Notes under the pieces: generated by a model | Databases searched by the model: none | The model's input: only the letters and a program-made list of their open reading frames with translations | What the model was told of the DNA's origin: nothing | Translations under genes and position numbers: made by a program | NCBI GenBank assembly: GCA_009602735.1 | Contig: WELA01001079.1 | Coordinates: forward strand, 1 to 64,000 | Direction: 5' to 3' | DNA: 64,000 nucleotides | From: Mesotaenium endlicherianum | Lineage: Eukaryota | Shown here: positions 1,092 through 60,084 of the stretch, piece after piece | Numbering within the stretch: position 1 is the stretch's first letter | Layout: each line of letters opens with the position of its first letter

Positions 1092-1716
1092 CAATAGACA
1101 CTCTTCTCTTCTTGCAGTTTCTGGACAGAAAACTAAAACTGCTACTGGTGATAGGTCTCTGCATAATAAATTCTGAAAATTTACCTGGCTGTAGTCCATG
1201 AGTAGCCGGTCATTTAGAGTCCAAGATTGCTCAATTTGGAGCACTGGTGAGAGAGATATGATGCTCTAAGTAGAAGGGGGTCAGGCTGCTGGCATTGTTA
1301 GGGCAGAATATGCCTTCTGTCATTGTGCCCTCCCCTGAACTTGGAATGCTCTGAAACTCAAGACTCTGGTAGAACATCTTACAGCGCCCACTTTGAGACT
1401 TAGTTTGTAGCATTTGGAGAAGTATAGAAGGACTTCTGATATTCAAAAGGTTCTGCACAGATTTGGAGGAGTGCCTACTCTCTCAGCTCTCAACGACACT
1501 CCAGAAATTAGAATGCTCTCAAATTTGGTGACCCGGTAGAGTTCTCTGACGCGGTTCGTCAGGCACTCCAATTTTTAGATTTGGAGCAGTTCTGTGGCCG
1601 CTATAAATTTTTGAATTCGTGGCAGATTCTAGGCCAACTTGTACAATTTTCTTTATCATTAAGGAGTAGGCTAGCCAATAAGGTCACACCACCTACGACC
1701 TTGCCTAGTCTACCTT

Positions 1717-1830
1717 ACATGTGTAGCACCTGACTTGGCGCCTTTGACTAGTCCTCTTCAACATGTGTGGCATCTGACTTGAAACTGTTGACTAGTTTGC
1801 TCCACATGTGTAAAACCTGACTTGACGCGC
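1717..1830 (+). repeat. Three imperfect ~44-bp tandem repeats in the 3' UTR of the family-1 Gypsy
   Basis: acatgtgt(a/g)...ctgacttg...ttgactagt recurs at ~1718, ~1761 and ~1804. Confidence 0.7.
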
Positions 1831-1861
1831 CGAGACGTCGCTTTTTCTATCGGGGGGGTGA

Positions 1862-2374
1862 TGTAGTGATTTGAGTTATTATATATTAGTTTGCCTATAT
1901 TTTAATNCTTTTTTTTGATGTTTTCAAATATATTTGGAGTAGTTTTGTGTGGAGTCAAGTGTGACTAGGTACTCTTGTAACTTGGTTCATGTCCTTTGAA
2001 CCTTCCAAGGCATTTTCGAAGTTAGAGGAAAGACCTAGAAGAACTCCATGTGGCAAAAGTCAAATGTGCATTTTTAGGTCAAAAAGACGTGTACATTATT
2101 CTAGAAAGAGGTGGCAAATTTTGGGATGTGTTGGGTGCCAACACATCAACATACATTTTCCTAGAAATTACTTATGTAGCAAGTATATAAACAAGAGCTA
2201 GAACATAGAAAGACATTCCAGAATCACTCTTGTACTTGCCAAAATCCAGAAATATATTAACTTTCAAGAAGCCATCTCTCTTTCAAGAAGCTACCACTTG
2301 TGTTCAAAGATCCTTGTCTTGAATAGATAAAGTATTCTGTTTTACTAAGTACTTTATCTATCTGTTTCACTACA
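1862..2374 (+). repeat. 3' LTR of the family-1 Gypsy (513 bp)
   Basis: Inverted termini TGTAGTGA...TCACTACA; preceded by PPT cgggggggtga (1851-1861); an inverted homolog lies at 44729-45100 plus 56489-56611. Confidence 0.9.
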
Positions 2375-10357: not shown

Positions 10358-10680
10358 CAAAGTTACGCCATACGCGTATCAGCCCAAAAAATTAGGCGTA
10401 TTCAGCGTATTTGGATAGAATTGAAGTGTAAAAATGAACCTTTTTTGTTTGGAGGGGGGAGGTCAATAGATTGTGTTCAAAGCATGGTGTATCGTCCTAA
10501 TAAGTGTCATATATCTTCAAGTTTCTCAAAAAACTCGATTGGAGTAATTTTGTACACATGCCGTAAAATAAGGCGTAAATTGTGATGCGTACTAAGCGTA
10601 TCAAGCAATTTTTGTTGTGACAAATTTAGCGAACTAGAGTATCTAGCGTATTAAGCGTATGAACGTACGGCGTAACCTTG
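10358..10680. mobile_element. hAT-type MITE (323 bp) inserted in the RNase H of element C
   Basis: TIR caaagttacgccatacg...cgtacggcgtaaccttg; 8-bp TSD aatccctt/attccctt (one mismatch); splits LLQD-GK/GLQPLAYESRK; second copy at 59636-59984. Confidence 0.88.
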
Positions 10681-14329: not shown

Positions 14330-14545
14330 TTTCCAATACAGCCACCAGTCTGCTGCACAGCCTTTCTGTAGAGCATTAGTGTGCCTGACCTTTCTCTCTG
14401 AATCATAGTCCTCGGGAGGTTTTGGCTTACTAGGCGCTCTACCACCACCACCTGTGGTTTGAGAACCCAGTTGGACTATGTCACGGAGCAGTGCCATCGT
14501 GATTCTTTTGTCCTTTTGTTAGGACTGATACATGCTCGCCATTTT
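14330..14545 (-). pseudogene. N-terminal gag fragment of another Gypsy element, truncated by element C
   Basis: KPKPPEDYD...KGCAADWW resembles the retrotransposon gag N-terminus. Confidence 0.5.
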
Positions 14546-28039: not shown

Positions 28040-28995
28040 CCAAGTCATAGAGTGCTACCCGATCATGTTGCCAAAAACCTTTGCAGCCTCATCTGATCCT
28101 ACACCACCAGCCATATGCCGAGCTATGTTGTCGGGTATTCCAAGGCATTTGCCCTTTTCCACCGTGGTGGGCTCTTTCCACACGGCGTCTCTTTTATAAA
28201 TGTCTTTGACCATTCCTGGTCCACCTCCTCTGAAGGCTCGGGATCCTGGACATGTTGTGAAGGTAGGCAGTACCACTCTTGGCTGACCTGGTTCGTTGAT
28301 GACCCACTGTGGATAGGAATCCCTCCAGGTCACTGGTCTGGTATCCACCGCCAGTGCCTTTTACACTGTCAATGCTGTTGGTGAGCGTTGTGTAATGTCC
28401 TCCAATTCTCTCAGAACCTCGATAGACGTGCCGTTGGTCCAAAATATCCTGGCCCTATGAGACAATCCTTCGTGCTTGGCGTCGTTGATTAGCACATGAC
28501 GGCCCAAATTGGAGTCGAAAATCAGCCATTGTTCTCCCGACTTCATCTGCTTGTAGTCCATTCCTGGATGTACGTTCTCAATCACAAACACAGGTGGGTG
28601 ATAGTGCTGACGTTCCCGCAGTATGCTGATGATTTTCACCATCCATCCCCAGTGTTGTGCTCGTGGATCACTGAATTCCCTCTTGTTTCTAGCTTGAGCA
28701 AATGGTTGACAACGGAATCCAGCAAAGATCCAATCACTCCTGTAACCATACAGGTATTCAGGCTTCACGTATATAATGTTGCCTTCAGCAATGCACTCGA
28801 CATTGCTAGATACAAGCGCCAACCTTTGAAAATGATGCATTTGCCGCATCTGATTCATGACCTCTTGGAATGCTCGAAAAGTGTGGTCATTGTTGTCCAC
28901 ATACAGGACTTCGGCCACCTGTATTTCTCGCTGGATCAATGCTATGGTCCCACAGCCAAGTGCGGCAAATAATTCCAGCACCACCACTCCCCTTT
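28040..28995 (-). pseudogene. C5 cytosine DNA methyltransferase domain inside the element-B polyprotein
   Basis: In the 411-aa ORF 28361-29596, contiguous with the protease C-terminal half: motif I VVVLELFAALGCG; motif IV IFAGFRCQPF; motif VI FVIENV; motif VIII SHRARIFWTN. In ORF 28055-28348: motif IX EPTTVEKGKCLGIP and motif X KVFGNMI. Confidence 0.92.
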
Positions 28996-36195: not shown

Positions 36196-38129
36196 CCTCC
36201 TGGTGCGTCCCTGGTGCGTCAAAGGAACTCAGTTGAGGGCTTAGGCTGGAGTACAATAGAGAGCAGTGGATGAGCTTAGATTCTCTTTACATACCGCCCT
36301 CCTCTGTTGTCGAGGCCGCTATCTGCAGGCCATCTCTTACCTCAGAAGATAGGTTGAAGGTTTGTGGCGTGCATTCTGAAGATAGCTTTAGAACGGAGAG
36401 CAGGAGTCTAAGTCCACAAGCCGGAGGCTGTTGTAGCGGAGGACAGATGCCCCCAGAAAGCAAAATTTTGTATATCGTGAAGGGTATTCAGGATGGAGAA
36501 ACTTCGATTGCAGGTTCTCATGACGTGGATGTCTATTGGTTCTGAGCAACTATGGCGGAAAACGTTCAATTGGAAATAGCACATGGGTGTACAGTCTAAT
36601 TGAAAGCTGGGGTACTGCTTGTAGGAAATGGGTAGTTTTACTTAAGTGGCTCTGCTTTGTTTGAAATAACTCTTTGAAGGTACTCATTTGGATGATTTCT
36701 TTGAGTTATAGCCTCCGAAACAATACATCCTACAACAATGAGGTCCATGATCTGTTGACTTGCTATGGATATTGCTGTGCCTACTGAGGCTACTTTAAAT
36801 GTCGCCTGTGTCCATCGAGTACTCGTAATGTGTCAAAATAGAGGAGGGGAATCATCCGCACGTGACTACTCCACTACGTGGAGAGCGTTGTAAAAGGCAC
36901 TGATGAGCAAATATATATGGCTCGCTTACTTTGTATGCTGTGTCAGTAATTCATAGTGCATGCTCATTTAATTCCCCTGAATTTCACAAATGCACCACAT
37001 CAATGGTGCTGCATTTGGAAATCATAGCGGACTTTAAGAATCACACGACAATCCACAAGCTGAGGCACAGGCCAGTGTGTGCAGCTACGTCTGTAGAGCA
37101 CAAACTTGGGCTTGTTCCAAAAGGTATGCCCTGCAATAAAAGTTGTCCACGTCCATTGCATGGCAGGAATAGAAATGGGTTTCCCGAGCAACCTTGGAAA
37201 ACCTGGTGAGTGATCCACCGAGCAAACCGCACTCGTAGGTTTCCACTTTGTAGTTTTGGGTTATGACCCCTCGAAGTGAAGGTGTTTTATTGCGAAACAA
37301 CTGGGCACGACCAAATCAGAGAGAAAGAGCGAGAAAAATGTATCTCTCGACAGCCTTGCAATGATTTTGGCCCCTCCAAAACGACACACATGCACCACGC
37401 GCGGGCCAAATCACGCGACAATTGATTTTGGCGCTGGGGGTACCAATTCGGTACCGATCGGTCTCACTCGCGACTCTTTTGACAAAGTTAAGAACGCGTT
37501 GCAGCAGCTCACTTATCTTCTTCATAATTCTCTGTACACTCTCTTAGCACTTACAAGTCCTAATTAAAAGTTGTTAAGCACTTAAGGGCAAACACCTCAC
37601 AACAAAAAAAAAGACTTGAGACGAAGTGTGGAGGCATTGACGACTAAATGAAAGTGGCGGATTCACAAGAGTAGAGCCTATAAAAGGTATACTATGGCTC
37701 TTTTTGCTGCACTCTTGCCCCATTAACATTCAGCACTGTTATTCATAATGTTTGTTATTTGCTATAAAAGAATCGCAGATGGGTTTAGGACATGTCCACC
37801 CCGTGAATTTGTGGACAAATTCGTATAGACGTATTTCAAGACGATTTTGTGAGGAGGGTACGAGCGGCCTGGGAAACGCAGGGAAATGTAGGTGTCAACA
37901 TAAGCAACATAAGAAGGGAAGAAAATCATTTTTACTTCACTTTTGCCTTGGGGGCAGGTTGGGACCAAATTGGGGGCAGATTTTAGGGATGGGGGCAGAT
38001 TTTAGGATATTCATTACTTGATTACACAACAAGTTCTTATACTTACCTGAGCAGTAATAGTCCAGTATTAGTACTACGTTACTCATTATTCACCTCTTAA
38101 CTTCTTTTCTTTTGGAGTGGGGCTAGGAC

Positions 38130-39183
38130 TGTCAGAACCAGGCCGGAAACATCGCCCTATGTAACATGGCATCATACCCCAACTACTGTAGCAACTGTGG
38201 TGCAGCATGAGGTGTGGGACTTCTTTACAGTCAGAAGTGGAACAAGTCTTTCACGCGGGCTGTAGAAGTGAACCCTATGGGCTGGCTTGTTAACTATACG
38301 TGTCTATAGGAGGATAGACTCTACTCCTCAAGCAAGTGTCCGCATTAGTGATGTGAATGTGCCTAAGAACTTGTTTGAGACTCTCTTTGCAAATGTAGGC
38401 AAAGAAGTTCCCCATATGTGGCTGCCAAATTGCTTCCAAAATCAAGAGAGGTGGAAACTATTATCCCCCCTTTTTTCATGGAATGGAGGATGAACAAGTC
38501 TGGAGAGAAAACTCTCACTTTAAAGCTTTCATCTTCAATTTTAAACACGGGGGGGCATGTTGTGATGGCCCTTGACCAGTGGTATGATAGACTTGTTTAG
38601 AAGGCACATCATCATATTGACACTAGCACTCATATACGATATAGACTTGCTGATTACCCTCTTAGGATGCAAGCAAATGGGCTTGAAGTGAAGGATGCCA
38701 TGATAGAACCAGCACAACTTTCAAGCGCTATCCTGCAGAAGGAACAAGAGAGAATTAAGAGAGAGAGAGAACTATAAGAGAGCTTGTGAGTTGCAAGAAG
38801 CTGCTGATTTAACAACTCGTGAGTTGAGAATGCAAAGGTTACAAGATATGTGCACACCTGCTAAAAGAAAAGCAAATTCTGATGCTCCTTTTGCACCTCA
38901 ACCTCCTACCACCTCTAAGCTAGCTAAGCAAGCTGCTATACAAGTCACGAGAGAGGCAAGAGCTAAGGTTGCAAATGAAGTGAGGCAAGTGCTTCAACGC
39001 AGAGAAGAGGAAAATTGGTTGATTGCGCAACAAGAGAAGGAGCATGCTCAAGCAATGCAAGTTTTGGTAAGAGAAAGCAAGCACTTGTCATCAAAAGAGC
39101 TTATGAAGAGAGCGCGTGAGGTAGCTGCCAACAGGAGAAAGACTCCAGCAGGTGAGGTGCACATATACATATTATACATTTAA
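38130..39183 (+). pseudogene. Second, convergent gene of the DNA transposon: N-terminal CxxC zinc finger and C-terminal basic coiled coil, function unknown
   Basis: NYCSNCGAA here and FYCQKCNKSF in copy 2; CTPAKRKANSDAPFAPQ...QRREEE...REVAANRRKTP, conserved at 51470-52696. Confidence 0.55.
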
Positions 39184-39217
39184 CATACTGGTTCCTTCCT
39201 ACACTAAGCATGTTTTC

Positions 39218-41540
39218 TAGCTACTCTACTTCTCCACCTTCTTCTTCTATGACCGTTGGATCAGATATCGTTACAACTGATGCCAGCGGTCGTCGCTTGA
39301 ACACCACCTCCTTCCTCTTTTGTCATTCTTTTCTACTCAATGGTGGCTCTATGATGGTAGATAGAGCTCTCTTCCCATTCTCTTAATGTGTTGCCTGGCC
39401 TATTCTCCCTTTACTGTACACTCGTCCTGTAGCATCCACCATCACCTTCTTGTTGTTAATCTTGGCTAATTTCCTCCATTGATGCAATGCCTCTATACCT
39501 TGTCCACTAAATTGATCTTGGTCCCCATGTATCCTGATCATATTTCCTATATGGCACTTCAATATGTGTATGTACTCAGTAATGTGGTCTGCTGCGCAAG
39601 CTACTACAAACTTGTCCTCAAAGTCTTCAGCAAGGGCCTCCACAAGAGAAGCTTTAGCTTCTCTCTCGTCGCCCGTGTCTAGTGCCGATATTGGCTCCAT
39701 AAGGGCAGCCAAGCACACTCCATAAGCACCTCATGCTTCTAACACGGCTTGTAGCTGTTCTGCATCATCAGGCTGGTTACAGAAGACACACTCTGCCAGC
39801 TCTAGAAAGTACTCGAGGAGGCGATGGCTGTCCCCTCTAATGAAGCTTCGCATGGCTGTCCTATTTCTCTTCTCTCCTTTCTTCAAGGCCTTCACAGCCT
39901 CCTTAGGTGTTGATGCCTTCACCTTCTCTTTGAAGAGCTTGTAGAATTCATCCTATTTGGCTTGCCTCGGTGGTAAGAATGCATGCAAAGTTCTCTCATA
40001 AAGTGTAGTTGAGATTCTTAAGTTCAAGTGCAGTACGCATACAACACAGTCATTAGGAGATATGTTAAACAATGGTGGCTTCTTGTGTCTCTGTCCTTGG
40101 TGCTGGAGCAAGTATTCCAATCTTGCCTTAGTGCTCTCCTTCTCTGGCTTGCCTCGTGTCGTCTTCATGATGTCCTTGTCCAGGTCTGACATACTCTCAG
40201 AATGTTTTGAGCAGTGTGGACACGTCATCGACTAACTTGCCCAAGTCAGGAGCGTGAGCTGCAGCCTTCATCCCCTCCAAGTTGCAAAGGGCACCGCGGT
40301 GACACCTGTCGTGGATGTCCTTCGACGTGCAAAGGCACCATAAGCACGGGTACGTTGAGCTTGCTCCAGTCAGCCCAAACAAGCTGTTACTAAATTCATA
40401 ATCGCCACCCTGATAGAACTTGACTCTGAAGAGGTCCTCTCGTAAATGCAGGCGTGCTGTAGTAACAGTGCCTATTTGCTCCAGCAGCCTTGAAGACACT
40501 CCCTGTATGCTATTGTAGTCATCCTGACCTTCAAAGCATACGAGGGTGCAGGTATTAGCTGCTGATTTTCTCCTTTGTTCTCATTTTGACAGCTATTGTA
40601 ATCTGGTCTACTTCCCGGTGTAGTGCTGCTGCGTCTCCTACAAGCTGGCATCTGCACCCTTACTACTCTTCCTGGTTGGAGCTGCCATTGTACTATGTGT
40701 AGTCAAAAAGTTTCTGACAATGACAAGGTCACTGCCAGCCCATCTGTACTCTCTTGAGGTCCCACACTTCGCTGCCAAGTTCTTTACTTTCCTCCTAGAA
40801 GGCAGCTAGGGAAGGGGAATCTTGGTGTTCTTGATGTACTTGAGCTCCCATAGTCCTGTTGCTTGGAGTATGTCTTTGACATGATGTTGAAAAGCATTTG
40901 GGATTGCTCCTCAAGAAGCTTCAACTTTATTTCATAGCCAGGCCTATCCGTCATTCCACTGCTCCTGTATTTGCTTCGCTATGGCCTCCTCTATAACTGG
41001 CAAATCGGTTGTAATAGCTACCAGCATGAGTTGTTCTCTGGCTTGTTCAAGGCTTTCAATAACTTGCTCATGTTTGTCTCACATCCAAACTCGCCCCCCA
41101 TAATAGCTTCAGGTCATTGCTCATTCTTTGCCATGTTTTTGCAGATTCTCCACCTACTCTACGACGCTTTGCTAGAGGAGTTTGAGAGGCTGCCATTCAC
41201 ACCTTTTGCTTTAGGTACCTTATCTCTCTTCTAGCTCCTCTCAAGTCTTTCTTCATGCCCATGAAGTGCCGAGCAACCTATACCTCCCTATCGGTTGTTT
41301 TCGTGTTCACGCTTCTGTTTTCTTTTGTATACATTAGCATTTGAAACCTGTATCTCTTTACTTTGCTCTCTAGCCTCTTTGAAGTATCTACAAGTGCTTT
41401 CTCAACACTTCTTTTCTTCCTCTACAAGAATCTGCCACCTGTTCCTCTAGGCATGTTTGTGGTTGTCTGCAGTCTTGGTCATATCACTTTATTGGGTTGA
41501 CCTTGATTCTTTTTGGCTCTTGGGATGGGATGGGTTCATG
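39218..41540 (-). pseudogene. RAG1/Transib/Chapaev-like DDE transposase, copy 1
   Basis: LVGDAAAL (D1, ~40630); FYQGGDYEFSNSLFGLTGASSTYPCLWCLC (D2 plus CxxC); PLFNI...CVLHLNLRI; ITEYIHILKCH (HxxxxH); QFSGQGIEALHQ (E). Confidence 0.8.
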
Positions 41541-42340
41541 ATGGGACACAAACTCAACTAGATCCATGATGAAAAATACCTTCTGTATAAATGTATAGGC
41601 GGATGGGTAGGTAGGTAGGTGGTAAAATGTTAATTCACTAGATTTTGGGCATTTTTTGATTTTTTGATTTTAAATTTAATTGTTTTTTTTAATATGATCC
41701 GAGAAAACCTTTATTTAAGCATGTAAAGATCACTTGTGCCTACACACCAAAAATGTGGCATAGATTGAAATGCACATGTAGCACGACTTATGCGAGTGAG
41801 AAAACTAAAATGGCAATTATTCTACGAGTACTCCTCATTAAACTTCAGAAAACTCTTCAAGTCCGAAAACACCTTCAAATTTCAATCTTGAAACTGTTCT
41901 GCAATCCTCTTAAATAGAAGAATAGTCATGCAAATTTATAGCTTCAAACAATGCCAGGTTGTTAATATATGCCAATGAACACATGCATTAAAAAGAGTCA
42001 CCTTTCAAGAAGTAGACAACTTATCGCCTACTTTTGCATATATTGCTCATGGGCCCTATCTTGGGCTTTGGTGCTTAGAATGGGCTGTAACTTGACTAGT
42101 AGCACTATGGGAGGGTGTGGAATCTAGTACAATCATTTTCACTTGTACTCCAAGTGTTTCTGCATTGTACGGATTGGCATGCTTCACTTGTGCGAGAAAC
42201 TCCATACGTCACATTTTGGAGGCTTACAGCCTGGTGTAGTTTGATGCAAATTGAATTTTTACTCTTTCATGGCTACCTGGTTGGATCCTTAATGCCTCTT
42301 CAAATATTGGGGAGAATTAAGAAAGTGGAATACAACCTAA

Positions 42341-43075
42341 CACTAGGTTTATTGCTTGTGGAACCAGAAATGACGCCACTGGAAGCTGTTTTTGAATGGT
42401 CATACTAAAATCGGTCCTAATGTGGTGCAAGCAAGCCGTACATGTCCACATTCACAGTTACATGAGCTTTCTAGCCATATAGTTATGCCGGTTTTAGCGC
42501 CGGTACTTAAAGGTACTTTTTGTACTTTCACTGAGATTGCACGCGCGCAAGGAAAAAAAATATTTTCTTCCGGCGCAATACCCGGGAAACTACAGCATAT
42601 ATGGGCTTGCTGATTTTTCCTCGCCTATCCTATGATATGCATAGTGCATAGCACTTCATAAATCTGCAATTTATCCATTACACACACACCAGCAACCTCC
42701 CAAACTTTGGTGTCAAAATTGAGACCAGGTCTTTCTTGGGTGACTCCAAAACTTTAGTGACAGTGTTCAACCAGATAAACATTTTTTAACATTGCTTCAA
42801 AAATACTTCATGCATTTCGTTGATACCTTTTTAAATGTGTTGACTTCTTACTTAACAAGCATGTTGCACCAATAACGCTTCAAAAATCTACGATTGGAAC
42901 AATAGGGCATTTGATGTGCAAGCCCCAAGAGTCGAGGCATTGCAAGACAAAGTTTATGCATCCTTTTCACAATAAAGTATTGAGTGTTTGTATAGAAACA
43001 TGCTACAGAAAATAGGCTGATAGTGGTGTTGTTTATGGTTCTAGAACCACATTTGGCACCATCGTCTACCTAGTG
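42341..43075. mobile_element. Non-autonomous piggyBac-like TIR element (735 bp) inside transposon copy 1
   Basis: TIR cactaggt...acctagtg; flanked by ctaa and ttaa; absent from the aligned site in copy 2 (~55857, tgcaaattatggcc). Confidence 0.65.
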
Positions 43076-45118
43076 TTAAGGCCATCGGTATGGAGTGTGA
43101 GTATGAAATATTTCTGAAATTATCTCTTTCTTTTGCAGATATCAGTTTGTGTGCATATCTTGAGTCTCATTACATGGATTGACCCGGATCTTCACCAAGA
43201 GCAATATGAGAGCATGAAAAAATCACTGAATCAATTTGCAGATCCGTACTACAAATATATCGCATTTTACGGACTGCCACTCTTCACATGTGTGAAATGC
43301 GCCACATGGCACACTTTGGAGGCCCATAACTTGAAGGGATTTTACGAATTTTTTTAATTTTTTTTTCTTGGCCTATAAGGGTTCTTAGTAGCCTCTAAAA
43401 AATGGAAGTGTTTGGACAACTGATGGTCATTTGTGTAAGGCAGCAAGAATAAGACAAAGTGAGTGTTTCCAGTTTTGTCGACAAATGCTTCACTTTCACT
43501 GAAAGTGCAATGACTTATGGAGAATATGTCAGCTGTGTTTGAAACTAAAGGGAGGTTTGCTAATATGAGTTTTTTATCACATTCTCAAAGTTTAGACCAT
43601 TCCGACAAAACCGTCGCAAAAAAGTACTTAAGTGTCAAAAAAATGGGCATTTGGGCTGCATGTTAAATCTGGTCCCCCAAGGAAGTTCAAGAACTCTATG
43701 ATCGTTGGGAAGTGGACGTTACGTTAGCTTGGAAAATGAATGTGAAGGACATTAGATGTTTGTAAGATGTAACTGTAATGGTCCAGTTTTGCACTGCTAT
43801 ACTCATCTTAGTGGGCATGATGATGAATACGATGCACGTATTAGATGGAAACCTCTGCGCACTCATGAAGCTCTTGGTGTTACGATGACAACGGGGAAGT
43901 AATTGAGTGAGGAGTGAATTTGAACACTAAGAACAAGGTCCACAAAGTTGTAAGTGGCCAGAGTGCTGTGGGGCTTCGTAAGGCGGAGCTTGCCTAAGTC
44001 ATACATGCACTACAAAGGAATAATTTGCAAAGATTGCCGCATTTGTGTCATAATGAACGTGTGCAGGAGCTAGAATGATCATCATTCGTGTCTCTGGATT
44101 GACGACCAAAAGTGAAAAGGTTGGCAGATAGTCTTTCTTTAAGAGATTTTTGCAACTTTGTGTATGAGAAACGTGTTACATCACGTATTTAAGAACACTC
44201 CAAATAGCGGAAGAAGCAACTTTTAGCTGTTGTGATACATTGAAATTCTTCTTATTCATCCCTAACACTTGTATTTTGGAGCAGAGTGATTTCCCAACCG
44301 GTCACAAACTTATGAGCTTAACTTTTGCAGGTTCTAATAAATTCATTGAGCTTACCAAGTTTGATAAGAACCTTGGAGACGGAAATATACATGTATCTCT
44401 GATTCATTATTTACTTGTCACTTCAATTATTATTTTTCAATGAAGTGATATAGGACTGTTATGTGTATTGAGTGTGCCGATCCTAAGAATACATGTCTAT
44501 AAATTAGGCACATAGTGCCACACTTTCAGTTCGCTGAAAGCACAATGACAAGATTCAAGAAAATGCTTATTACATGTGAGTGATGAGCCAGGCTTTACGT
44601 TGGTCAAATGTAAAATGCACTTCATTTAGTACAAACATTTGCGTGCATTTTAGGCTTCCACGTGGTGCCCCAACTCTCATGTACAGATACAAAAGTAGAG
44701 TTTCTCATGACACTTTACCCTGGCACGCTGTAGTGAAACAGATAGATAAAGTACTTGTAAAAGGGAACACTTTATCTCTTCAAAATGCAAGGATCCTAGG
44801 ATACAAGTGGTAGCTTCTTGAAAGAGATGGTTTCTTGAAATTGAGTATATTTTTGGTACTTGGCAAGTACCACAGTGATTACAGAATATCTCCTTATGTT
44901 CTAGTTCTTGTTTTCATACTTGCTACATAAGTAATTTCTGCGAAGGTGCATATTGATGTGTTGGCACCCAACACATTCCAGAACTTGCCACCTCTTTCTA
45001 GAATAATGCACGCAATTGACTTTAACCCAAAAATGGCATTTTTGACTTTCGCCACATAGAGTTGTTCAATAGGTCCTTCTTCATATTTCAAAAATGCGTT
45101 TACATGCACCACGCGCGG

Positions 45119-48100
45119 TGTAAGGTCATAGGTTTATAAAGTGCATTTTTGAGTATCATGAAAGTATGTTTTGGTTGTATAATAGTATAGTGTGCATTTT
45201 TGTGGTCATTTTGATATAAAGTTCATCGAATTTGGTCAAGTATTGAGAGACTTACGGATTTCCAAAGTTTAATTTGTTTTGAGGTCCGTTGACGACTGTC
45301 CTTAATTTGCGGTGAGCGCGACTGTCGGATTGACCGACAGAGTCGAGCGATCTGGCCTGTTAGAATGAACTCGAACCTTCACGTAAGTTCGGCTGACGCG
45401 GAGTGCCGACTAGGTCGATTTACCTAGAAGTTTCGGTTTAGCCTAGCGCGTCTAAGATAGAATATTCTAGTAACGTCGATGCATGTATGTGGACGTCAAT
45501 TCGGCCGGACACGTCAGATTAGACTGATTTGGCTTACTCACGAATATTCTGGAACGGACAATTGACGAACACTTTAAGAGAATCCGTAGCTTCCTCCTAG
45601 AGAGGAGCATTTAGGCAGAAAATTATAAATAGGCATTACTTCTTTGTTTCTTATCAGTTTTCACTTCTGTAAATTTCTATGGGTTTGTAATGACAAGGCC
45701 TTTCATTCTAGTTCATTTAAGAGCAGCTTCTTGCTACTCAAAATGTTGAGTATTTTTCCTGAGCTTTGTTAGTGATATGCCGCTGCACTCTCTAGTATGA
45801 TTGCAACTAGTTCTTTTCCTCGTAAGTTACTACGCTTTCACTGGGGCACTCTGCCCCTTCAATCTGGTATCGGAGCAAGGTTAGTTTGCCCATAATATTA
45901 TGGAGTCGCAGTCGGCAGCTGGAGGAGGCGAACATGTCGAGCATTTTGAGCGCGTGGAGCAGACGACACGACCTTTGGCAAGGGAGCAACAAGAGATGCA
46001 GGCGATGTTGAGGCAGATGGCAGACGCAATTGGAGGAAAATTTTACACGTTGCTTCAACAATATATGCGCCAGGAGGTGGAGAGAATGGTGCGAAATGTT
46101 AAGGGGAACGCCGCTTCGACGAGTTCGGCACCTGCACCTGTTGTACCACCAATTCATGTTAATCCAGTGGTGCAACCAGTTATTCCACCCACATCAGGAG
46201 TACGTACGCCTAATCCTGACGTGTACATTGGAGAGCGTGGATCGTCGCCTGTTCATCAATGGAGTTGGGACTTGTCCACTACCAGCGCAGGCAGCAGAAT
46301 TTTAAGCCGAGAGAACCCTGCTATAATTGTGGTAAGCTTAGACATCTGGCTCGAGATTGTGATGTGAAGGCAAAGCAACCTCATCAGCAGGAAAAAGGAG
46401 GACGCCAGTAAGTCGTTCTGGGGTGTCTACCGGCGTGAAGACGAGAAATCACATGGAGGTTATGCCCAGGAGCCTGCCGAGAAGCGAAAGACAAGACGTT
46501 GACAAGCCTATTATCGTGGAAGGAGTAGTTGACGGCAACAAGGCGAAGTGTATGGTCGACAGTGGCGCAAGTGCAAACTTTGTGCACAAGAAGCTGGTGA
46601 AAGAGTGGCGAATCCCTGTGCAAAAGCATTATGAGCCTAAGGAAGCAATTCTGGCGAATGGGCAGAGACTCAAGTGTGGTGCACCTACGGAAGCTATTCA
46701 CGTGGAAGTAGCCGGGCACCAGAGTACTGAAGTTATGGAGCAGGCAGAGTTAGGTCAACATGAGGTCATATTGGGCCGACCATGGCTGAGAAAAGCCGAC
46801 TCTCAAGTGCAGTGGAGCACAAAACAAGTGAAAGTCTAAGGGCGTGATGGTCGAATGGAGACAGCGAAACAGGTGGAGGTAGATACGACCACAAGTAACT
46901 GTCTTCTGTCGAGCCTGCAAGTTAAGAAGCTATGCAGGGCGAATCAGGTGAAAGAGATGTACCTGGTTTTGGTNGGTTTTGCTGGCCCTGGCCAGGTCAT
47001 CAGATGGAGCAAGCGTGAATCCCAACAGCCTGGGCGAATGTACATCGCCAAAGGAGCAAGTAGTGGTGTCTGATCCCCTTGCTCAGAAGAAGCAGAGCCC
47101 AACTGCTCAAGAGAAGAAGCCTGCTGAGATGCCTGCCCAAATTCAGGCGCTGTTGGAGGAGTTCAAGAGCGTATTTCCTGAGAAGCTAACTACAGGATTA
47201 CCTCCACAGAGAGCTATGGAGCACAAGATCGATTTGGAACCAGGGAGCAAGCCACCAGTGAGACCCGCCTATCGTCAATCATTTGCGGAGTTGGACGAGT
47301 TGAAGAACCAGCTGACAGAGTTGTTGGAGAAGAGATTCATCCGACCCAGCGAGTCTCCATTTGCAGCGCCAGTCTTATTTGTGAAGAAGAAGGATGGGAC
47401 AATGAGGATGTGTGTTGACTACCGGGCACTCAACAAAGTCATTATCAAGAACAGGTACCCACTTCCACGAGTGGACGAGTTGATTGACAGGCTTGTCGGG
47501 GCGAAGTATTTCTCGAAGATTGATTTGAGGAGTGGCTATCACCAGGTACGGATTGCAAAAGAAGACGTTCAGAAGACTGCTTTCAGGACTCGCTATGGTT
47601 TGTTCGAGTTCACAGTCATGCCTTGTGGATTGACTAATGCACCTGCTACATTCATGGGACTCATAAATAGTATCTTCAGACCCTACTTGGACCAACTTGT
47701 GGTGGTATTATTGGACGACATCCTGATCTATTCGAAGACCTTGGAAGAGCATGTGGAGCATCTGAGGAAGGTGTTGGAGGTCTTGAGAGATCAGAAGTTG
47801 TATGGGAAGATGAGCAAGTGCGACTTCCGTCTCAATGAAGTCGAATTTCTTCGACATGTAGTGGAAACTGAAGGAGTGAAGGTGGAGGAGAAGAAGGTGC
47901 AAGCAGTCAGAGATTGGCCGGTGCCTGCTGATATTCATCAACTTAGGAGGTTCCTCGGCATGGCAAATTATTCCCGACGTTTCATTGAAGGATTTGCCAA
48001 GGTGTGTGCACCGCTTACGGACATGTTGAAGAAGCAGGAGAAGTGGCTATGGGGTGACAAGGAGCAGCAAGCCTTCGAGAAGATTGAAGAGCTGTTAACA

Positions 48101-50748
48101 CAGGCACCTGTGTTGGCAATTGCCAGTCCAGAGCTTCCTTTCACCATCATCACGGACGCATCAAACTTTGCAGTGGGAGCCATCCTTCTCGAGGACCAGG
48201 GCAAAGGATTGCAGCCTGTGGCATATGAGAGCTGAAAGTTGGGTCCTGCGGAGCAGAACTATGCAGCTCACGAGTGAGAGATGGTGGCTATCATCCAGGC
48301 TTTGAGGATTTGGCGATGTTATGTGGACGGCCGGAAGGTGTTTATCAAGACCGACCACAAGAGCTTGGAGAAGTTTATGACGCAACCAACGTTGACACCA
48401 AGACAGGCAAGGTGGATGGAGTTTCTGCAACGGTTTGACCACAAGATTGAGTACTTACCTGGGAAGATCAACCCTGCAGACGCTTTATCCAGGAGGTGTG
48501 ACCTTGCAGCTGTCTCAGTCATCAAGGAGAATATGGACTTCAAGGAGAAGCTTCAAAGAGGTTATGAGGAGGACCCAGAGTTTGCTGATGGTGGAGCAGC
48601 GGAGTTCAACGCGAGTATGCAGAAGAAGGACGGCATATGGTATTATGGTGATTCCAACAGAGTGGTGGTACCTGACATCAAGGAGCTACGAGACTTACTA
48701 CTTGCGGAGCATCATGACTGCTTATATGCTGGACACTTTGGAAGCGAAAAGACGGCAAGCGTGTTGAAGCGGGATTACTACTCGAGAAATATGGACAAGG
48801 ACATCGAGGAGTGGATTAGGAGTTGCGATGCGTGCCAGAGAAACAAAATACCAAATCAAAAGAAGGGAGGTACATTGCAGCCACTGCCTATTCCAAACTA
48901 TCCGTGAGAGCAGATTGCTATGGACTTCATCACGTCGTTACCAGTGAGTGGTCAAGGGCACGATGCAGTTTGGGTTGTGTCTGATCGGCTCAACAAGATG
49001 GCTCACTTTATTCCCATGAAGGAGACTTCTACGGCAGCAGATGTGGCACGGCTATTCTTTGATCATATTTTCAGGCTACATGGGTTGCCGAAGGTGATTG
49101 TTTCAGATCAGGATCCAAGGTTCACTAGCAACTTTTGGCGGTCATTGTTTACTTCGATGGGGACCAAGCTGAGTATGAGCACTTCCTATCACCCTCAGAC
49201 AGATGGGCAGAGTGAGAGGCTAAACAGAACTCTGCAAGAGGTGCTCAGGAGTTTCACTATCGAGGACCCTTCAGAGTGGGACAAGAAGCTGCCAGGATTG
49301 GAGTTTGCCTACAACAACAGCATGCAGGGATCCACCAAGCAGTCACCATTTGCTATGGTTTATGGGAGAGAAGTATATCATCCAGGGAACATCTTGTTGG
49401 TGAAGGCCAAGGAGATTCAGGTTCCTACTACACAAGTTCTTATGGAGCAGATGGCCAAGACTTGGGATATGGCGAAGACGTGTATTCGGAAGGCACAGGA
49501 AGAGCAGGTCAAGCATGCTAACAAGCACACGAGGGAAGTGACATTCCATATGGGTGACATCGTACTCTTGTCAACAGAAAATCTACCTTTCACAGGCAAG
49601 AGGAAACTGCGAGCACGGTTTACAGGTCCCTTTGTAGTGCTCAAGCAGGTGAATCCAGTGGCCTACAAGTTGGAATTTCTTTTAGGCTGGCGTATCCATG
49701 ATGTGTTCCATGTCAAATGTTTGCGGCCATACGTGGACCCGAACGAAGGACATCCAGGACGACTACCCACACCGCCCTCACAGGTCGAGATCGATGACGT
49801 ATCGGAGTATGAAGTGGAGGCGATTGTCGGCAATGGACGAGTCAAGCGAGGTCAACAACTTGTTCAAGAGTATCTGGTTAAGTGGAAGGGCTACCATGCG
49901 GACGACAACACTTGGGAGCCAGAGGCCAACTTGACTCATTGTAAGAGTAAGTTGAGACGTTATTTGCAGAATGCGTCGGGGACGTCGCATTTTGAGGAGG
50001 GGGATAATGTAAGGTCATAGGTTTATAAAGTGCATTTTTGAGTTTCATGAAAGTATGATTTGGTTGTATAATAGTATAGAGTGCAATTTTCAGGTCATTT
50101 TGATATAAAGTTCATCGAATTTGGTCAAGTATTGAGAGAGTTACAAATTTCTGAAGTTTGAATAGTTTTGAGGTCGGTGGACGACTGTCCTTCATTCGCG
50201 GTGACCGCGACCGTCGGATTGACCGACAGCGTCGAGCGATCTGGCCCGTTAGAATGAACTCGAACCTTCACGTAAGTTCGGCTGACGCGGAGTGCCGACT
50301 AGGTCGATTTACCTAGAAGTTTCGGTTTAGCCTAGCGCGTCTAAGATAGAATATTCTAGTAATGTCGATGCATGTATGTGGACGTCAATTCGGCCCGGCA
50401 CGTCAGATTAGACTGATCTAGCTTACTCACGAATATTTTGGAAGGGACGATTTGACGAACACTTAGGAGAATCCGTAGCTTCCTCCAAGAGAGGAGCATT
50501 TAGGCAGAAAATTATAATAGGTATAACTTCTTTGTTTCTTATCAGTTTTCACTTTTGTAAATTTCTACGGGTTTGTAATGACAAGGCCATTCATTCTAGT
50601 TCATTTGTGAGCAATTTCTTGCTACTCAAAATGTTGAATTTTTCCTAAGCTTTGTTAGTGATATGCTGCTGCACTCTCTAGTATGATTGCAACTACTTCT
50701 TTTCCTCGTGAGTTACTGCGCTTCCACTAGGGCACTCTGCCCCTTCCA
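45119..50748 (+). mobile_element. Ty3/Gypsy chromovirus (family 2) element D, both LTRs and TSD intact; gag internally deleted; premature stops in pol
   Basis: LTRs 45119-45861 and 50008-50748; TSD cgcgg at 45114-45118 and 50749-50753; PBS tggtatcggagc 45865-45876; PPT gaggagggggataa; [42 protein letters not shown], chromodomain EYLVKWKGY...TWEPE. Confidence 0.97.
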
Positions 50749-51469
50749 CGCGGGCCTAATCTTGCGACACTTAATTTTGGCGCTGGGGGTACCAATTTGG
50801 TACCGATCGATCTCACTCGCGACTCTTTTGACAAAGTTAAGTGCGTTGCAGCAGCTTGTCTTCTTTATTATTCTCCGTACACGCATGCACCACTTACAAG
50901 TTCTAACTAAAAGTTGTTAAGCACTTACAGGCGAACACCTCACAACAAAGAAATAGACTTGAGACGAAGTGTGGAGGCATTACGACTAAATGAAAGTGGC
51001 GGATTCACGAGAGTAGAGCATATCAAAGGTAAACTATGGCTCTTTTTGGTGCACTTCCGCCCCATTAACTTTCATAATTGTCAATTATTATGTTTGTTAT
51101 TTGCTTTGAAAGAATCACAAAAAAGTTTGGAACTGCTCCATCCCGTGAATTTGTGGACGACTCCGTACAGACATATTTAGAGATGACTTTGTGAGGAGGG
51201 GTACGAGCGGCTTGGGAAACGCAGGGAAGTGGAAGTGTCAACATAAGCAGCATAAGAAGGGAAGAAAAATCATTTTTACTTCACTTTTGCCTTGGGGGCA
51301 AGTGGGGGGCAGATTGGGGGCATATTTTAGGGTTAGGGGCAGATTTGATAATAGTCATTACTTGTTTACACAACAAGTTCTTATACTTACCTGAGCAGTA
51401 GTAGTCCAATATTAGTACTACATTACTCATTATTCACCTCTTAACTTCTTTTCTTTTGGAATGGGGCTA

Positions 51470-52696
51470 GGATTGTCAGAACCAGGCCGGAAAGATCGCC
51501 CTCTTCAACAAGGCATCATTCCCCAACTACAGCAGCAACTGTGGTGCAGCAAGAGGTGTGCGACTTTTCTACTGTCAAAAGTGCAACAAGTCTTTCATGC
51601 GGGCTGTAGAATTTGACCGTATGGGCTGGCTTGTTAACTATAGAAGACGTGTCTATAGGAGAATAGACTCTACTCCTGAAGCAAGTGTCCGCATTAGTAA
51701 TATGAATGTGCTTAAGAACTTGTTTGAGACTCTCTTTGCACATGTATGCAAAGAAGTTTCCCACTATATTACTAAAACCGAGTCCATGGTTGTCTCGTAG
51801 TATTCGAAGAGTGTGTTGGAGTGTAGAGGATTTGGATGCTCTTCTTTCCTTCAAATCTGTCCATTCTTATTTGGACTATGGGGCTGCCAAATTGCTTCCA
51901 AAATCAAGAGAGGTGGTAGCTATTATCCCCCCTTTTTTCATGGGATGGAGGATGATCAAGTCTGGAGAGAAAACTCTCACTTTAAAGTTTTCATCTTCAA
52001 TTTTAAACACGGGGGGGCATGTTGTGATGGCCCTTGACCAGTGGTATGATAGACTTGTTCAGAAGGCACATCATCACATTGACACTAGCACTCATATACA
52101 ATATAGACTTGTAGAGCACTCTCTTAGGACGCAAGCACATGGGCTTGAAGTCAAGGATGCCATAATAGAAGCAGCATAACTTGCAAGAGCTAACCTGCTA
52201 CAAAAGGAACAAGAGAGGATTAAGAGAGAGAGAAAGAGAGAACTATAAGAGAGCTTGTGAGTTGCAAGAAGCTGCTGATTTAACAACTCGTGAGTTGAGA
52301 ATGCAAAGGTCACAAGATATGTGCACACCTGCTAAAAGAAAAGCAAATTCTGATGCTCCTTTTGCACCTCAACCTCCTACCACCTCTAAGCTAGCTAAGC
52401 AAGCTGCTATACAAGTCACGAGAGAGGCAAGAGCTAAGGTTGCAAATGAAGTGAGGCAAGTTCTTCAACGCAGAGAAGAGGAAGACAGGTTGATTGCGCA
52501 ACAAGAGAAGGAGCATGCTCAAGCAATGCAAGCTTTGGTAAGAGAAGGCAAGCACTTGTCATCAAACGAGCTTATGAAGAGAGCTCGCGAGGTAGCTGAC
52601 AACAGGAGAAAGACTCCAGCTAGTCAGGTGAGCTGCATATATACATATTATACATTTAATTTACTACTTCCTTGCTACACTAAGCATATTTTCTAG
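51470..52696 (+). pseudogene. Second, convergent gene of DNA transposon copy 2 (zinc finger plus coiled coil)
   Basis: FYCQKCNKSF; HGGACCDGP; homologous to 38130-39183. Confidence 0.55.
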
Positions 52697-55065
52697 CTAC
52701 TCTACTTCTCCACCGGCTTCTTCTATGTCTGTTGGATCAGATGTTGTTACCACTGGTGCCAGCTGTCGTCGCTTGAACACCACCTTCTTCCTCTTTTGTC
52801 TTTCTTTTGTACTCAATGGTAGCTCTATGATGGTAGATAGTGCTCTCTTCCCACTCTCTTGATGTGTTGTCTGGCCTATCCTCCCTTTGCTATACACTCA
52901 TCTTGTAGCATCCACCATCACCTTCCTTTTGTAAGTCTTGGTCCATTTCCTCCATTGATGCAATGCCTCTATACCTTCTCCACTAAATTGATCTAGGTCC
53001 CCATGTCTCCTGATCATATTCCCTACGTAGCACTTCAATATGTGCATGTACTCAGTAATGTGGTCTGCTGCGCAAGCTACTACAAACTTGTCCTCAAAAT
53101 CTTCAGCAAGGGCCTCCACAAGAGAAGCTTTAGCTTCTCTCTCGTCGCCCGTGTCTAGTGCCAATATTGGCTCCATAAGGGCAGCCAAGCACACTCCATA
53201 AGCACCTCATGCTTCTAACACGGCTTGTAGCTGTTCTGCATCATCAGGCTGGTTACAAAAGACACACTCNTCATCAGGCTGGTTACAGAAGACACACTCT
53301 GCCAGCTCTAGAAAGTACTCGAGGAGGCGATGGCTGTCCCCTCTAATGAAGCTTCGCATGGCTGTCCTATTTCTCTTCTCTCCTTTCTTCAAGACCTTCA
53401 CAGCCTCCTTAGGTGTTGATGCCTTCACCTTCTCTTTGAAGAGCTTGTAGAATTCATCCTATTTGGCTTGCCTCGGTGGTAAGAATGCATGCAAAGTTTT
53501 CTCATAAAGTGTAGTTGAGATTCTCAAATTCAAGTGCAGTACGCACACAACACAGTGATGAGGAGGTATCTTAAACAATGGTGGCTTCTTGTGTCTCTGT
53601 CCTTGGTGCTGGAGCAGGTAATGCAATCTTGCCTTAGTCCTTCTCTGGCTTGCCTCGTGTCGTCTTCATGATGTCCTTGTCCAGGTCTGACATACTCTCA
53701 GAATGTTTTGAGCAGTGTGGACACGTCATCGGCAACTTGCCCAAGTCAGGAGCATGAGCTGCAGCCTCCATCCCCTCCAAGGTGCAAAGGGCACCGCGAT
53801 GACACCTGTCGTGGATGTCCTTTGACTTGCAAAGGCACCATAAGCACGGATATGTTCAGGTTGCTTCAGTCAACCCAAACAAGCTGTTACTTAACCGTGA
53901 CCCTGATAGAACTTGATTCTGAATAGGTCCTCCTCTACATGCAGGCTTGCTGTGATGACAATACCTATTTCCTCCAGCAGCCTTGAAGACACTCCCCGTA
54001 TGCTATTGTAGTCATCCTGATCTTCAAAGCATACGAGGGTGCAGGTATTAGCTGCTGAGTTTGTCATGCCCAAGCTATCCTTTGTTAAAATTTTGACAGC
54101 AATTGTAGTCTGAATAACTCCCCTGTGTAGTGCTGCTACGCCTCTCATAATTTGCACCCTTACTACTCTGCCTGGTTGGAGTTGCAATTGTACTATCCGT
54201 TGTCTTATAGTTTCTTGCAATGACAAGGTCACTGCCAGCCCATCTGCACTCTCTTGAGTTCCCACTTAAGCGTAGATCTTGGCTGCCAGGTTCTCTACTT
54301 TCCTCTTAGACGGCAGCTTGGGGAGGGCAGTCTTCGTGTTCTTGATTTACTTGGGCTCCCATAGTCTTGTTGCTTGCAAGTATGTCTCTGACATGATGCT
54401 GACAAGCATTTGGTATTGCTCTTGAGAAAGCTTCAACTTGTACTTGATACTCAGCCCTAACCTGTCATCCCTCCGCTCCTGTATTTGCTTCACTGTGGCG
54501 TCCTCTATGATTGGCTTCGAGTGCAATTCTGTTGTAATAGCTTCCAGCATGTCTTTGTTCTTTGGCTTGTTCAACAAGGCTGTTGATGACTTGCTCATGT
54601 TTGTCTCACATCCAAACTTGGTCCCCATAAATAGCTTCAGGTTCTTGCTCATTTTTTGCCATGTTTTTGCAAATTCTCCACTTACTCTACGACAATTTGC
54701 TGGAGGAGTTTGAGAGGCTGCCATTGACACCTTCGCGTACCTTATCTCTGTCCTGGCTTTTCTGAAGTCTTTCTTCATGCCCATGAATCACCGAGCAACC
54801 TGTACCTCCCCATCGGCTGTTTTCCTCTTCAGACTTTTCTGTTCTTCTGCATATTTTAGCATTTCACACTTGTATCTCTCTACTTTACTCTCTAGCCTTT
54901 TTGAAGTACCTACTGGTGCTTTCTCAACACCTGTTTTCTTCCTCTTTTAAAAAAATCTGCCACTTGATCTTCTATGCATGTTTGTGTTAGTCTGCACTCT
55001 TGGTAATGTCACTCTATTGGGTTGATCATGATTTTTTTTGGCTCTTTGGATGGGTGCGGGTTCAT
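52697..55065 (-). pseudogene. RAG1/Transib/Chapaev-like DDE transposase, copy 2
   Basis: RVVRVQIMRGVAAL; NTCTLVCFEDQDDY; FRIKFYQG; CVVCVLHLNLR; ITEYMHILKCY...DLDQFSGEGIEALHQ. Confidence 0.8.
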
Positions 55066-57051
55066 CTTGAGACACAAAGATGATGAAAGAGACCTTCTGT
55101 ATGAATGTGTACAGAGTTATAGGCGGATTAGTAGGTAGGTAGGTGGTAAAATGTTGGTTCAGCAGATTTTTGGCATTTTTTTTTGATTTTTTGATTTTTA
55201 AAATTATTTTGCATTTTTGAAAAAAACATTACTTGAGCATGTAGAGTTCACTTGTGCCTACACACCAAAAATGTGGCATAGATTGAAGTGCACATGTAGC
55301 AGGACTTATGAGGGTGAGAAATCTAAAATGGCAAATTTTTTACGTGTACTTTTCGGTAAGCTTTAGAAAACTCTTAAAGTTTGAAAACACCTTCGAATTT
55401 CAAACATGAAATTGTTATGCAATCCTCTTATGTAAAATAAAGTCATGCAAAGTTATAGCATGAAAGAATGCCAGGTTGTTAACATATCCCACTCAACACA
55501 TGCATTAAAAAAAGTCACCTTTCAAGAAGTACACGACTTATTGCCAACTTTTGCATATATAGCTCATGGGCCCTATCTTGCGTTGTGGTGCCTAGAATGG
55601 GCTGTAAGTTGACCAGTAGCACTGTGAGGGGGTGCAAAATCTAGTAGGATCAATTTCAGATCCGTACTCAAAAAGTTTCTGCATTGTATGGATTGGCAAG
55701 CTTCACATATGCGAGAAACTCCCCATGTCACATTTTGGAGGCTCAGAGCCTGCTGTGGTTTAATGCAAACTGAATTTTTGTTCCTTTTATGGCTACCCAG
55801 TTGGGTCTCTAATGCCTCTTCAAACTTTGGGGGGAATCAAGAAAGTAGAGTGCAAATTATGGCCATCGGTACGAAGTGATAAAAAGTGCAACATGTAACA
55901 TTTTTCCAATTATCGCTTACTTTTTATCGCTTGCAGATTTAGTTTGTGTGCACATCTTGGGTCTCAATGAATGGAGTAACCCAAAACTTCATCAATAGCT
56001 CTATGAGGGCATGAAAAATCCGATGAAACAATTTTCAGATACGTAATACAAATATACTGCATTTTACGGACTGCCTCTCTTTACAAGTGTGAAAAGCGCC
56101 ACATGGCACACTTTGGAGGCACATTACTTGAAGGGATTATTAGATTCTTTTGTTTTTTCTTTTAAAGTTATGGCTACCTTAGAGGGTTCTTAGTAGCCTT
56201 TCAAAAAATGGAGTCAATTAGCAAACTTTTGGACAACTGATGGTCATTTGTATGAAGCAGCATGAATGAGACAAAGTGAGAATTCCACTTTTGTCGACAA
56301 ATTCTTCACTTTCACTGAAAGTGCAATGAGTTTGGAGAATATGTCAATTATGATTGAAACTTCAGGGAGGTCTATACATATGGCTTGTTTATCAGATTCT
56401 CAAATTTCAAAACATTCCAACAAAATCGCCACAAATGGCGCCTAAAAGTACCTAAGTGTCCAAAAAATGGGCATTTGGGCTGCATGTGTTAGAAGGTGCA
56501 GAGGACATGAACCAGACTAGTAGAGTATCTGTTCATACTTGAATGGACAGATAAGTACTTAAAAGCAATAGAACAAAAACAAACTAATGTATTTTAACTT
56601 ATATCACTATAGCCCTCCCCAGACAGAATAAGCGGTGTCTCGATGCGTTCAGTCAGGTCTTACACATGTGGAGAAGACTTGTCAAAGGCGCCAAGTCAAG
56701 TGCGACACATGCAAGAGAGAACAGGCAAGGTCGTGGGTGGTGTGACCTTATTGGCTAGCCTAGTCGTTGATCATTATGGGAAATAGTGCAAATTGGCTGT
56801 AAATTTGCCCCGCATTCAAAAAACCATAGTATCTTGAAAAGTGCTTGAAATCTCAATAATCTAGTACCAGACGTACCTCGTAAAAGACATCTACCAGATC
56901 ACCAAATTTGAGAGGTTTCTAACATCTGGAATAAAGTAGAGTTCAAAAAGAGTAGGCACTTCTCCAAATCAGTGCAGACAATTTTGAAAATCAAAATCCC
57001 TATACTTCTTTGAATTGTGCAAAGTTAGTAGTTACTTGAGAGCAGTAACGT

Positions 57052-60000: not shown

Positions 60001-60060
60001 ACACAATTGACGGTAAGCGGGTCTCACTGGTGGCTTGCTTTTTGGTTCCAACTTGACCTT
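57052..60060 (-). mobile_element. Family-2 Gypsy element E remnant (3' LTR ~57052-57731, chromodomain/integrase, RT); RNase H-to-integrase segment deleted
   Basis: LTR homology; [24 protein letters not shown]...[15 protein letters not shown] joins VPVSRHAHD at ~58790. Confidence 0.85.
59636..59984. mobile_element. hAT-type MITE (349 bp), second copy, inserted in the RT of element E
   Basis: 17-bp TIR caaggttacgccatacg; perfect 8-bp TSD gcttcttc at 59628-59635 and 59985-59992. Confidence 0.92.
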
Positions 60061-60084
60061 GGGATTCAAAGCCCTTAGTGAAGG

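Follow-up and report, generated by a model that had tools for sequence, protein, structure and literature searches.

The locus and its two transposon copies

The window analysed here, a stretch of 64,000 nucleotides from Mesotaenium endlicherianum (assembly GCA_009602735.1, contig WELA01001079.1, positions 1 to 64,000 of the forward strand), contains two decayed copies, A and B, of a DNA transposon that belongs to the CMCT clade, the group that includes RAG1 (Table 1). The element combines a transposase gene with a second, convergent open reading frame (ORF2). An original prediction, made from the letters alone, had described a RAG1/Transib/Chapaev-like element with CAC...GTG ends that occurs twice and may represent an undescribed family; it contained neither ORF2 nor the second zinc module described below. 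Self-comparison of the window by blastn bears out the repeat, since 37387-43664 aligns with 50749-56488 in three blocks of 77-87% identity. The left end of copy B is not missing; it is separated from the remainder of the copy by a nested Ty3 long terminal repeat (LTR) retrotransposon.

Table 1. Coordinates of the transposon copies, their coding remnants and their target sites within the window
Feature	Position	Strand	Remarks
Transposon copy A	37387..43664	-	6278 bp, decayed; drawn from self-comparison and depth steps at the borders
Copy A left terminus	37387..37396	+	CACATGCACC
Copy A right terminus	43655..43664	-	reverse complement AACATGCAGC, end base altered; copy B has CACATGCAGC
Copy A transposase pseudogene	39230..41570	-	outer limits approximate; profile match 41374-39308
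First catalytic Asp (VQLVGD)	40633..40635	-	D in 41/41 relatives
Second catalytic Asp and CxxC	40335..40403	-	GGDYEF-SNSLF-GLTGASSTYPCLWC, D at 40403-40401; D 60/60, C 64/64
Second putative zinc module, family-specific	40100..40256	-	H-x11-CxxC-x36-H; spans the copy A +1 frameshift at 40233
H-x4-H zinc ligands and catalytic Glu	39491..39568	-	H 118/119, H 109/119, E 115/116
ORF2	38128..39150	+	decayed, convergent with transposase; CxxC-x10-CxxC N-terminal end, charged helical C-terminal end; limits approximate
Copy B left 18 bp	45101..45118	+	TACATGCACC..., first base altered
Copy B remainder	50754..56488	-	transposase pseudogene (profile match 54871-52784) and ORF2 (51471-52627, + strand)
Ty3 LTR retrotransposon	45119..50748	.	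nested 18 bp within copy B; own 5-bp duplication CGCGG
TT duplication of copy B, left	45099..45100	+	
TT duplication of copy B, right	56489..56490	+	
Empty paralogous site	1700..2080	-	of the repeat that received copy B; 2 bases shorter at the insertion point

Both ends of the element read CACATGCA(C/G)C and form an inverted repeat matching at 9 of 10 bp, with one terminal base altered in each copy. The predicted CAC...GTG ends are therefore only partly intact: they are present at the left of copy A (CACATGCACC) and at the right of copy B (...GCATGTG at 56488), whereas the right end of copy A reads ...GCTGCATGT and then, at 43664, T rather than G. At 43655..43664 the window shows 0 differences from a contig found in runs X1 and X2. 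The contigs derive from two DNA runs of one sample, which are perhaps the window's own source and so lend no independent support. Their summed depth over the element is about 1000-2000, against about 50-60 in the flanks, with a step to about 1200 at both ends (ratios of these depths are not copy numbers), and single positions of the element are overlapped by up to 16 contigs. Just after 43663, 14 contigs of run X2 depart from the stretch, with G as their consensus first letter. Depth, overlaps and departures together indicate that the element is a repeat family and that its right border is as drawn. One contig of high depth carries a subfamily about 80% identical, which may be younger. A contig of run X2 links 39149 to 43372, possibly an internally deleted derivative, and in runs X5 and X6 the last 50-80 bases of the element lie on longer contigs that might represent short non-autonomous copies.

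The transposase frames of both copies are interrupted by stops and frameshifts. The +1 frameshift at 40233 is particular to copy A, being found neither in copy B nor in most of the contig depth, and in copy B a frameshift has removed the context of two of the three catalytic codons. Across six segments, the ratio of nonsynonymous to synonymous differences between the copies (dN/dS) is 0.5-1.5, with no codon-position bias and no third-position excess, from which it follows that the copies decay without selection. By their sequence, both are dead members of a DNA transposon family of the cut-and-paste kind that is present in multiple copies. At 38857-39057 and 39652-40020 the copies are 98-99% identical, compared with 81-95% elsewhere, and share two stop codons; at 53271 copy B has an N and a 30-base duplication. 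Either gene conversion or assembly mixing could lie behind these stretches and the duplication. Each copy has also kept a canonical splice-donor-like site (CAGGTAAGT, 38042-38050, minus strand), which lies a long way downstream of the transposase frame.

Transposase motifs and clade

What is the catalytic core of this element? All six motifs quoted in the original prediction lie on the minus strand in the order given there, between about 41570 and 39230, spread over several frames. LHLNLR stands between the second Asp and the H-x4-H, which lies within ITEYIHILKCH, and the catalytic Glu is that of FSGQGIEALH (39493-39491). The residue counts in Table 1 are taken among relatives aligned at each column. 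From the second Asp to the first Cys there are 19 residues, and from the first His to the Glu there are 25; both distances are the same as in RAG1.

The CMCT clade of Kojima 2025 comprises EnSpm/CACTA, Mirage, Chapaev, Transib, Plavaka, ESTA, Lanisha and RAG1, and is defined by D-D-E, C(2)C and H(3-4)H motifs, CA..TG ends and duplications of 2-5 bp (PMC12730594). The element displays a D-D-E triad, C(2)C and H(3-4)H in the stretch from the second D to the E, CA..TG ends and a target-site duplication (TSD) within 2-5 bp; because triad, zinc ligands, ends and duplication range all agree, it is a CMCT transposon. The list of groups against which the original prediction had measured it was incomplete, as it included neither Plavaka nor ESTA nor Lanisha, a lineage from moss (PMC12730594), nor the 39 Transib-like proteins that Tao et al. 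report from plant assemblies (PMC9435367). Six algal or moss terms were looked for in the supplement text of the latter study, and none occurs there (PMC9435367).

Relatives of the transposase

A profile of three overlapping window fragments, searched against 1.84 billion representative proteins, matched 128 proteins at E<=1e-3 and 10 at E<=1e-10, the best at 2.1e-23. Their core identity to copy A is 19-30%. Clusters were looked up for organism for 30 of the 128 matches, and the six that carry a name all belong to early green algae: Pterosperma sp. (1), Mesostigma viride (2) and Cymbomonas tetramitiformis (3). Window sequence was kept out of a second profile, which was built from 47 relatives; in each copy its match begins at profile position 7-10 and runs to 656 of 698, with E values down to 1.7e-61. 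Since this window-free profile recovers both copies, including the N-terminal half that lay outside the search query, the relationship is not due to chance. In a word-index protein search, the C-terminal and second-Asp fragments found nothing, and an alignment of relatives matched the query only.

A profile of the family reaches RAG1 at E 4e-13; similarly, a profile of the 44 relatives that bear the second zinc module reaches RAG1 at 1.5e-13 and the ProtoRAG RAG1L at 3.2e-10. Neither profile matches HzTransib or Transib. In a Pfam scan of the 47 relatives at E<=0.05, none matches Transposase_21 or Plavaka, three match RAG1 and seven DUF1280, with best scores under the cut-offs; among the 44 module-bearing relatives only one reaches the RAG1 model, below its cut-off. 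The distances given above bear out the RAG1-type spacing of the original prediction, and by the 0/47 count the transposase is not an ordinary CACTA TnpD. Language-model features of a window fragment lead to RAG1_RNase_H/ZnC2, Transposase_21 and Plavaka clusters, the Transposase_21 link being a feature-level look-alike cluster (15% of members).

One Mesostigma protein that clusters with a transposase of the family, P0142 (2844 amino acids), also contains leucine-rich repeats and guanylate-cyclase domains and is either a fused gene model or an insertion. Close-match scans of metagenome contigs, viral contigs and prokaryote genomes, whose blanks are weak, returned no related loci with flanks: two metagenome pattern matches were rejected because they resemble bacterial DNA and blastn aligns neither with the window, and a viral-contig match was rejected as chance.

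Predicted fold of an intact relative

The relative P0011, a Pterosperma protein from a transcriptome, has a core identity of 29% to copy A, and its structural model (predicted local distance difference test score, pLDDT, 84.9) adopts a RAG1-type RNase H DDE fold. Its matches are RAG1 (E 5e-16), HzTransib (3.9e-10, template modelling score 0.63 by target length) and BbRAG1L (1.8e-9); the P element follows at 4.2e-4. A likeness to the RAG1 and HzTransib structures, one of the checks proposed with the original prediction, is thus seen in the model of this relative. Its structural identity to RAG1 is 12-15%. The modelled N-terminus is helical and forms a coiled-coil, with no conserved Cys or His.

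A second predicted zinc module

Just after the zinc domain's first CxxC, the window reads AAHAP...CPHC...LQHQG, a further H-CxxC-H that is likely a zinc finger. Its residues are conserved among aligned relatives (H 58/61, C 63/63, C 57/59 and H 71/75), and another alignment shows them as invariant or almost so. For the tally and tree, 54 well-covered relatives were kept and 74 dropped. Of those 54, which cover >=70% of the core, 45 have the module and nine do not, and the nine form one side of a split with an approximate likelihood ratio (SH-aLRT) support of 99.5 even after removal of the module columns. The window copies fall among the module-bearing proteins, with no resolved sister. The conserved residues that the figure legend of Kojima 2025 lists for the clade are two C and three H; a second H-CxxC-H, as in the present family, is absent from that list (PMC12730594).

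Target-site duplication

When joined, the flanks of copy B (TT and TT) carry two extra bases relative to the empty site, precisely at the insertion point. The empty site is about 75-80% identical and carries other small gaps, and a 3-bp reading of copy B needs two further changes. The flanks of copy A are CA/AA at 2 bp and ACA/AAA at 3 bp, with one mismatch each. Duplications of 4 and 5 bp fit neither copy, the 5-bp readings being GCGTT/TTAGA and CGACA/AAATC. We conclude from one site that the target duplication is likely 2 bp. Of the two lengths that the original prediction had left to be fixed, the terminal inverted repeat thus comes to 9/10 bp and the duplication to 2 bp at a single site, with copy A inexact at both 2 and 3 bp. 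The target of copy B is an unclassified repeat with tandem ACACATGT/AGTCAAG units that occurs at 1418-2374, 44729-45100 and 56489-57009.

ORF2 and the element ends

ORF2 is possibly one exon of a spliced gene; in copy B it comprises stop-free stretches of 109, 157 and 175 codons. Compared with Pfam and Atlas clusters it shows no family match, its Atlas look-alikes staying under 0.8, and its single-sequence fold model (pLDDT 49) is too low for use. A reading of ORF2 as a PHD protein or RAG2 was rejected: the PHD-like reading needs a frameshift absent from both copies, and there is no match to a Kelch, PHD or RAG2 family. Near the ends, which in RAGL and ProtoRAG elements are bipartite and asymmetric, a possible second end element, GACACTTA, lies at offsets 31 and 29. 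Its alignment score is reached by 5 of 1000 shuffles; judged by longest word, 23-279 of 1000 shuffles do as well over four pairings, and the element is suggestive only.

Assignment and mechanism

We propose, with a probability of about 0.6, that the element represents an uncatalogued and mainly green-algal CMCT lineage, with a predicted second zinc module and a TSD of likely 2 bp as its marks. By the features tested, it is not Transib, RAG-like (RAGL), Chapaev or plant CACTA. The RAG1/Transib/Chapaev-like assignment of the original prediction accordingly holds for the RAG1-type fold and spacing; it does not hold for the measurable duplication, which is 2 bp as opposed to 5 bp in Transib and RAGL and 3-4 bp in Chapaev, nor for the partner domains, since no RAG2 and no Chapa or RING domain was found. 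That the family may be undescribed stays plausible, named lineages having been compared by description. The open literature searched holds no description of it, Repbase Reports and most subscription journals lying outside that scope. An undescribed lineage is likely rather than demonstrated, because there is no tree with the named superfamilies and Lanisha is known here by description only.

Several points weigh against this assignment. Reference sequences of Transib, Chapaev, Mirage, EnSpm, ESTA and Lanisha are absent from all the trees, and the position of the window within the family has support 0. The search favours module-bearing proteins because its query contained the module, and single window fragments gave nothing significant in Pfam or PDB. 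The fold was modelled on a relative and not on the window protein, and as RAG1 had no rival from CACTA, Chapaev or Mirage among the fold matches, the fold indicates kinship to the clade and not a special closeness to RAG1. The TSD evidence is one site, which copy A matches exactly at neither length, and zinc binding and the role of ORF2 are predictions. Finally, the host range is poorly known, because 24 of the 30 clusters carry no organism and 98 of the 128 matches were not looked up.

RAG1 and Transib act as dimers that bind their ends, nick at the CAC border, hairpin the flanks and carry out strand transfer. By analogy, a dimer of an active transposase would bind both ends of the element, and its D-D-E site would nick at the CAC border. 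The element would be freed through hairpinned flanks and its ends joined to target DNA with a 2-nucleotide stagger, the repair of which would leave the 2-bp duplication. More speculatively, the putative H-CxxC-H module might bind a second zinc and contact DNA, and ORF2 might encode a putative accessory protein, placed as RAG2L is in ProtoRAG yet unrelated to it.

A bolder form of the proposal seems improbable to us: an ancient undescribed green-lineage superfamily of RAG1-fold transposons whose range runs from prasinophytes to streptophytes and which, Transib apart, is the nearest relative of RAG1, with a second zinc finger, bipartite ends resembling recombination signal sequences, a 2-bp stagger and a convergent partner gene that came independently to the position of RAG2.

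A tentative alternative, less probable than our proposal, is that the element belongs to a CMCT lineage that has already been described, though with little documentation; the most plausible candidates are Lanisha, from the moss Ceratodon, and a family that Repbase lists as EnSpm. Lanisha is a cut-and-paste superfamily of the green lineage (PMC8245031); it shares the C(2)C and H(3-4)H motifs and the CA..TG ends, and its clade has duplications of 2-5 bp (PMC12730594); moreover, CACTA-type elements with CAC..GTG ends and a 2-bp TSD have been described (PMC6004678), and Repbase files Chapaev and Mirage under EnSpm (PMC4455052). However, no moss is among the six named clusters, a weak point as 98 matches were not looked up, and although Lanisha is similar to EnSpm according to Kojima (PMC12730594), the TnpD family is found in 0/47 relatives, which is likewise weak, the comparison with Lanisha being by description.

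We regard as highly improbable a true element of the Transib/RAG1L line, that is, a green-lineage subgroup I Transib or RAGL relative in which ORF2 replaces RAG2L. The RAG1-exact spacing, RAG1 as top profile and fold match, the two convergent genes as in ProtoRAG (PMC9435367) and the possible second end element GACACTTA (5/1000 shuffles) would all fit such an element; yet a 5-bp duplication fits neither copy, ORF2 lacks a Kelch, PHD or RAG2 family match, the RAG1 Pfam model is reached by one of 44 module-bearing relatives and below its cut-off, HzTransib is matched by neither profile, and the structural identity of 12-15% to RAG1 stands against a mean of 26% reported for RAG1L taken together with Transib (PMC9435367). 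A Chapaev or Chapaev3 element is the least probable of all, for although CAC..GTG termini are a Chapaev hallmark (PMC4079192) and a 3-bp duplication could be had with further changes, the TSD is 3-4 bp in Chapaev and TWA in Chapaev3 (PMC4079192) with no two-sided TWA or 4-bp match in either copy, and Chapaev transposases bear an N-terminal Chapa zinc finger (PMC4411706) where the modelled relative lacks conserved Cys or His.

Other features of the window

The Ty3 element that interrupts copy B is near-complete, with a chromodomain-like C-terminal end and LTRs that are 92.9% identical; more copies lie at about 7840-14330 and 57050-64000. A Copia element with long open gag-pol frames occupies 16404-20164 (plus strand). 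Decayed frames resembling C5 cytosine methyltransferases occur amid retroelement remains at 5028-5981, 21709-22422 and 28361-29704, all on the minus strand (Pfam E 0.008, 3e-4 and 1.6e-8, respectively); methyltransferase-bearing retrotransposons have been reported from charophytes and dinoflagellates (PMC5890265). Together with the named relatives of the transposase, these frames speak for a host among green algae or early plants, and so indirectly for the green-lineage genome of the original prediction.

Significance and comparison with known systems

Work on RAG1-fold transposases has been almost confined to animals. An algal family that is deep and has intact, transcribed members would supply an outgroup for tracing how RAG1 and Transib arose; it would also offer a natural way to test why the same fold makes a target stagger of 2 bp in one case and 5 bp in another. 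Because the family escapes Pfam, annotations of algal genomes probably leave it without a label. The window copies are dead, and their value is chiefly as a pointer to the family.

How does the element compare with the named members of the clade? CACTA elements have a two-gene layout, TnpA and TnpD. Plant CACTA/EnSpm elements thus share with ours two genes and CAC..GTG ends; they differ in their terminus (CACTA, here CACATG), in Transposase_21 (0/47 relatives) and in gene orientation, which is convergent here and not co-oriented. The duplication of Mirage is 2 bp, with which the element agrees in length, the comparison extending to no Mirage protein. As regards Chapaev, no Chapa or RING domain was found, the alignments of relatives showing no conserved Cys or His before the first Asp; no Chapa profile was scanned directly.

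RAG1, the ProtoRAG RAG1L and the Aureococcus RAGL resemble the transposase in fold, in the 19- and 25-residue distances and in CAC ends, and ProtoRAG also in its convergent second gene; the element differs in its 2-bp duplication where theirs is 5 bp, in lacking a RAG2-like gene, in 12-15% identity, in the extra module and in its short 9/10-bp repeat. Likewise, HzTransib shares the fold (E 3.9e-10) and CAC ends with the element, which lacks the 5-bp duplication of Transib and RAGL (PMC4411706, PMC9435367) and any sequence-profile match, and has a second ORF and the extra module. Plavaka is set apart by its domain and by TGT..ACA or CATCA..TGATG ends, neither of which occurs here (PMC12730594). 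The ESTA elements of rust fungi, compared by description and not by protein, are RAG1-like by remote homology, begin with CAC and duplicate 2 bp; ESTA duplicates TA, whereas the element has TT at its sole clean site and its other flanks vary (PMC12730594). Finally, Lanisha of Ceratodon purpureus, known here by description only, shares with the element the green lineage and the CMCT motifs (PMC12730594, PMC8245031).

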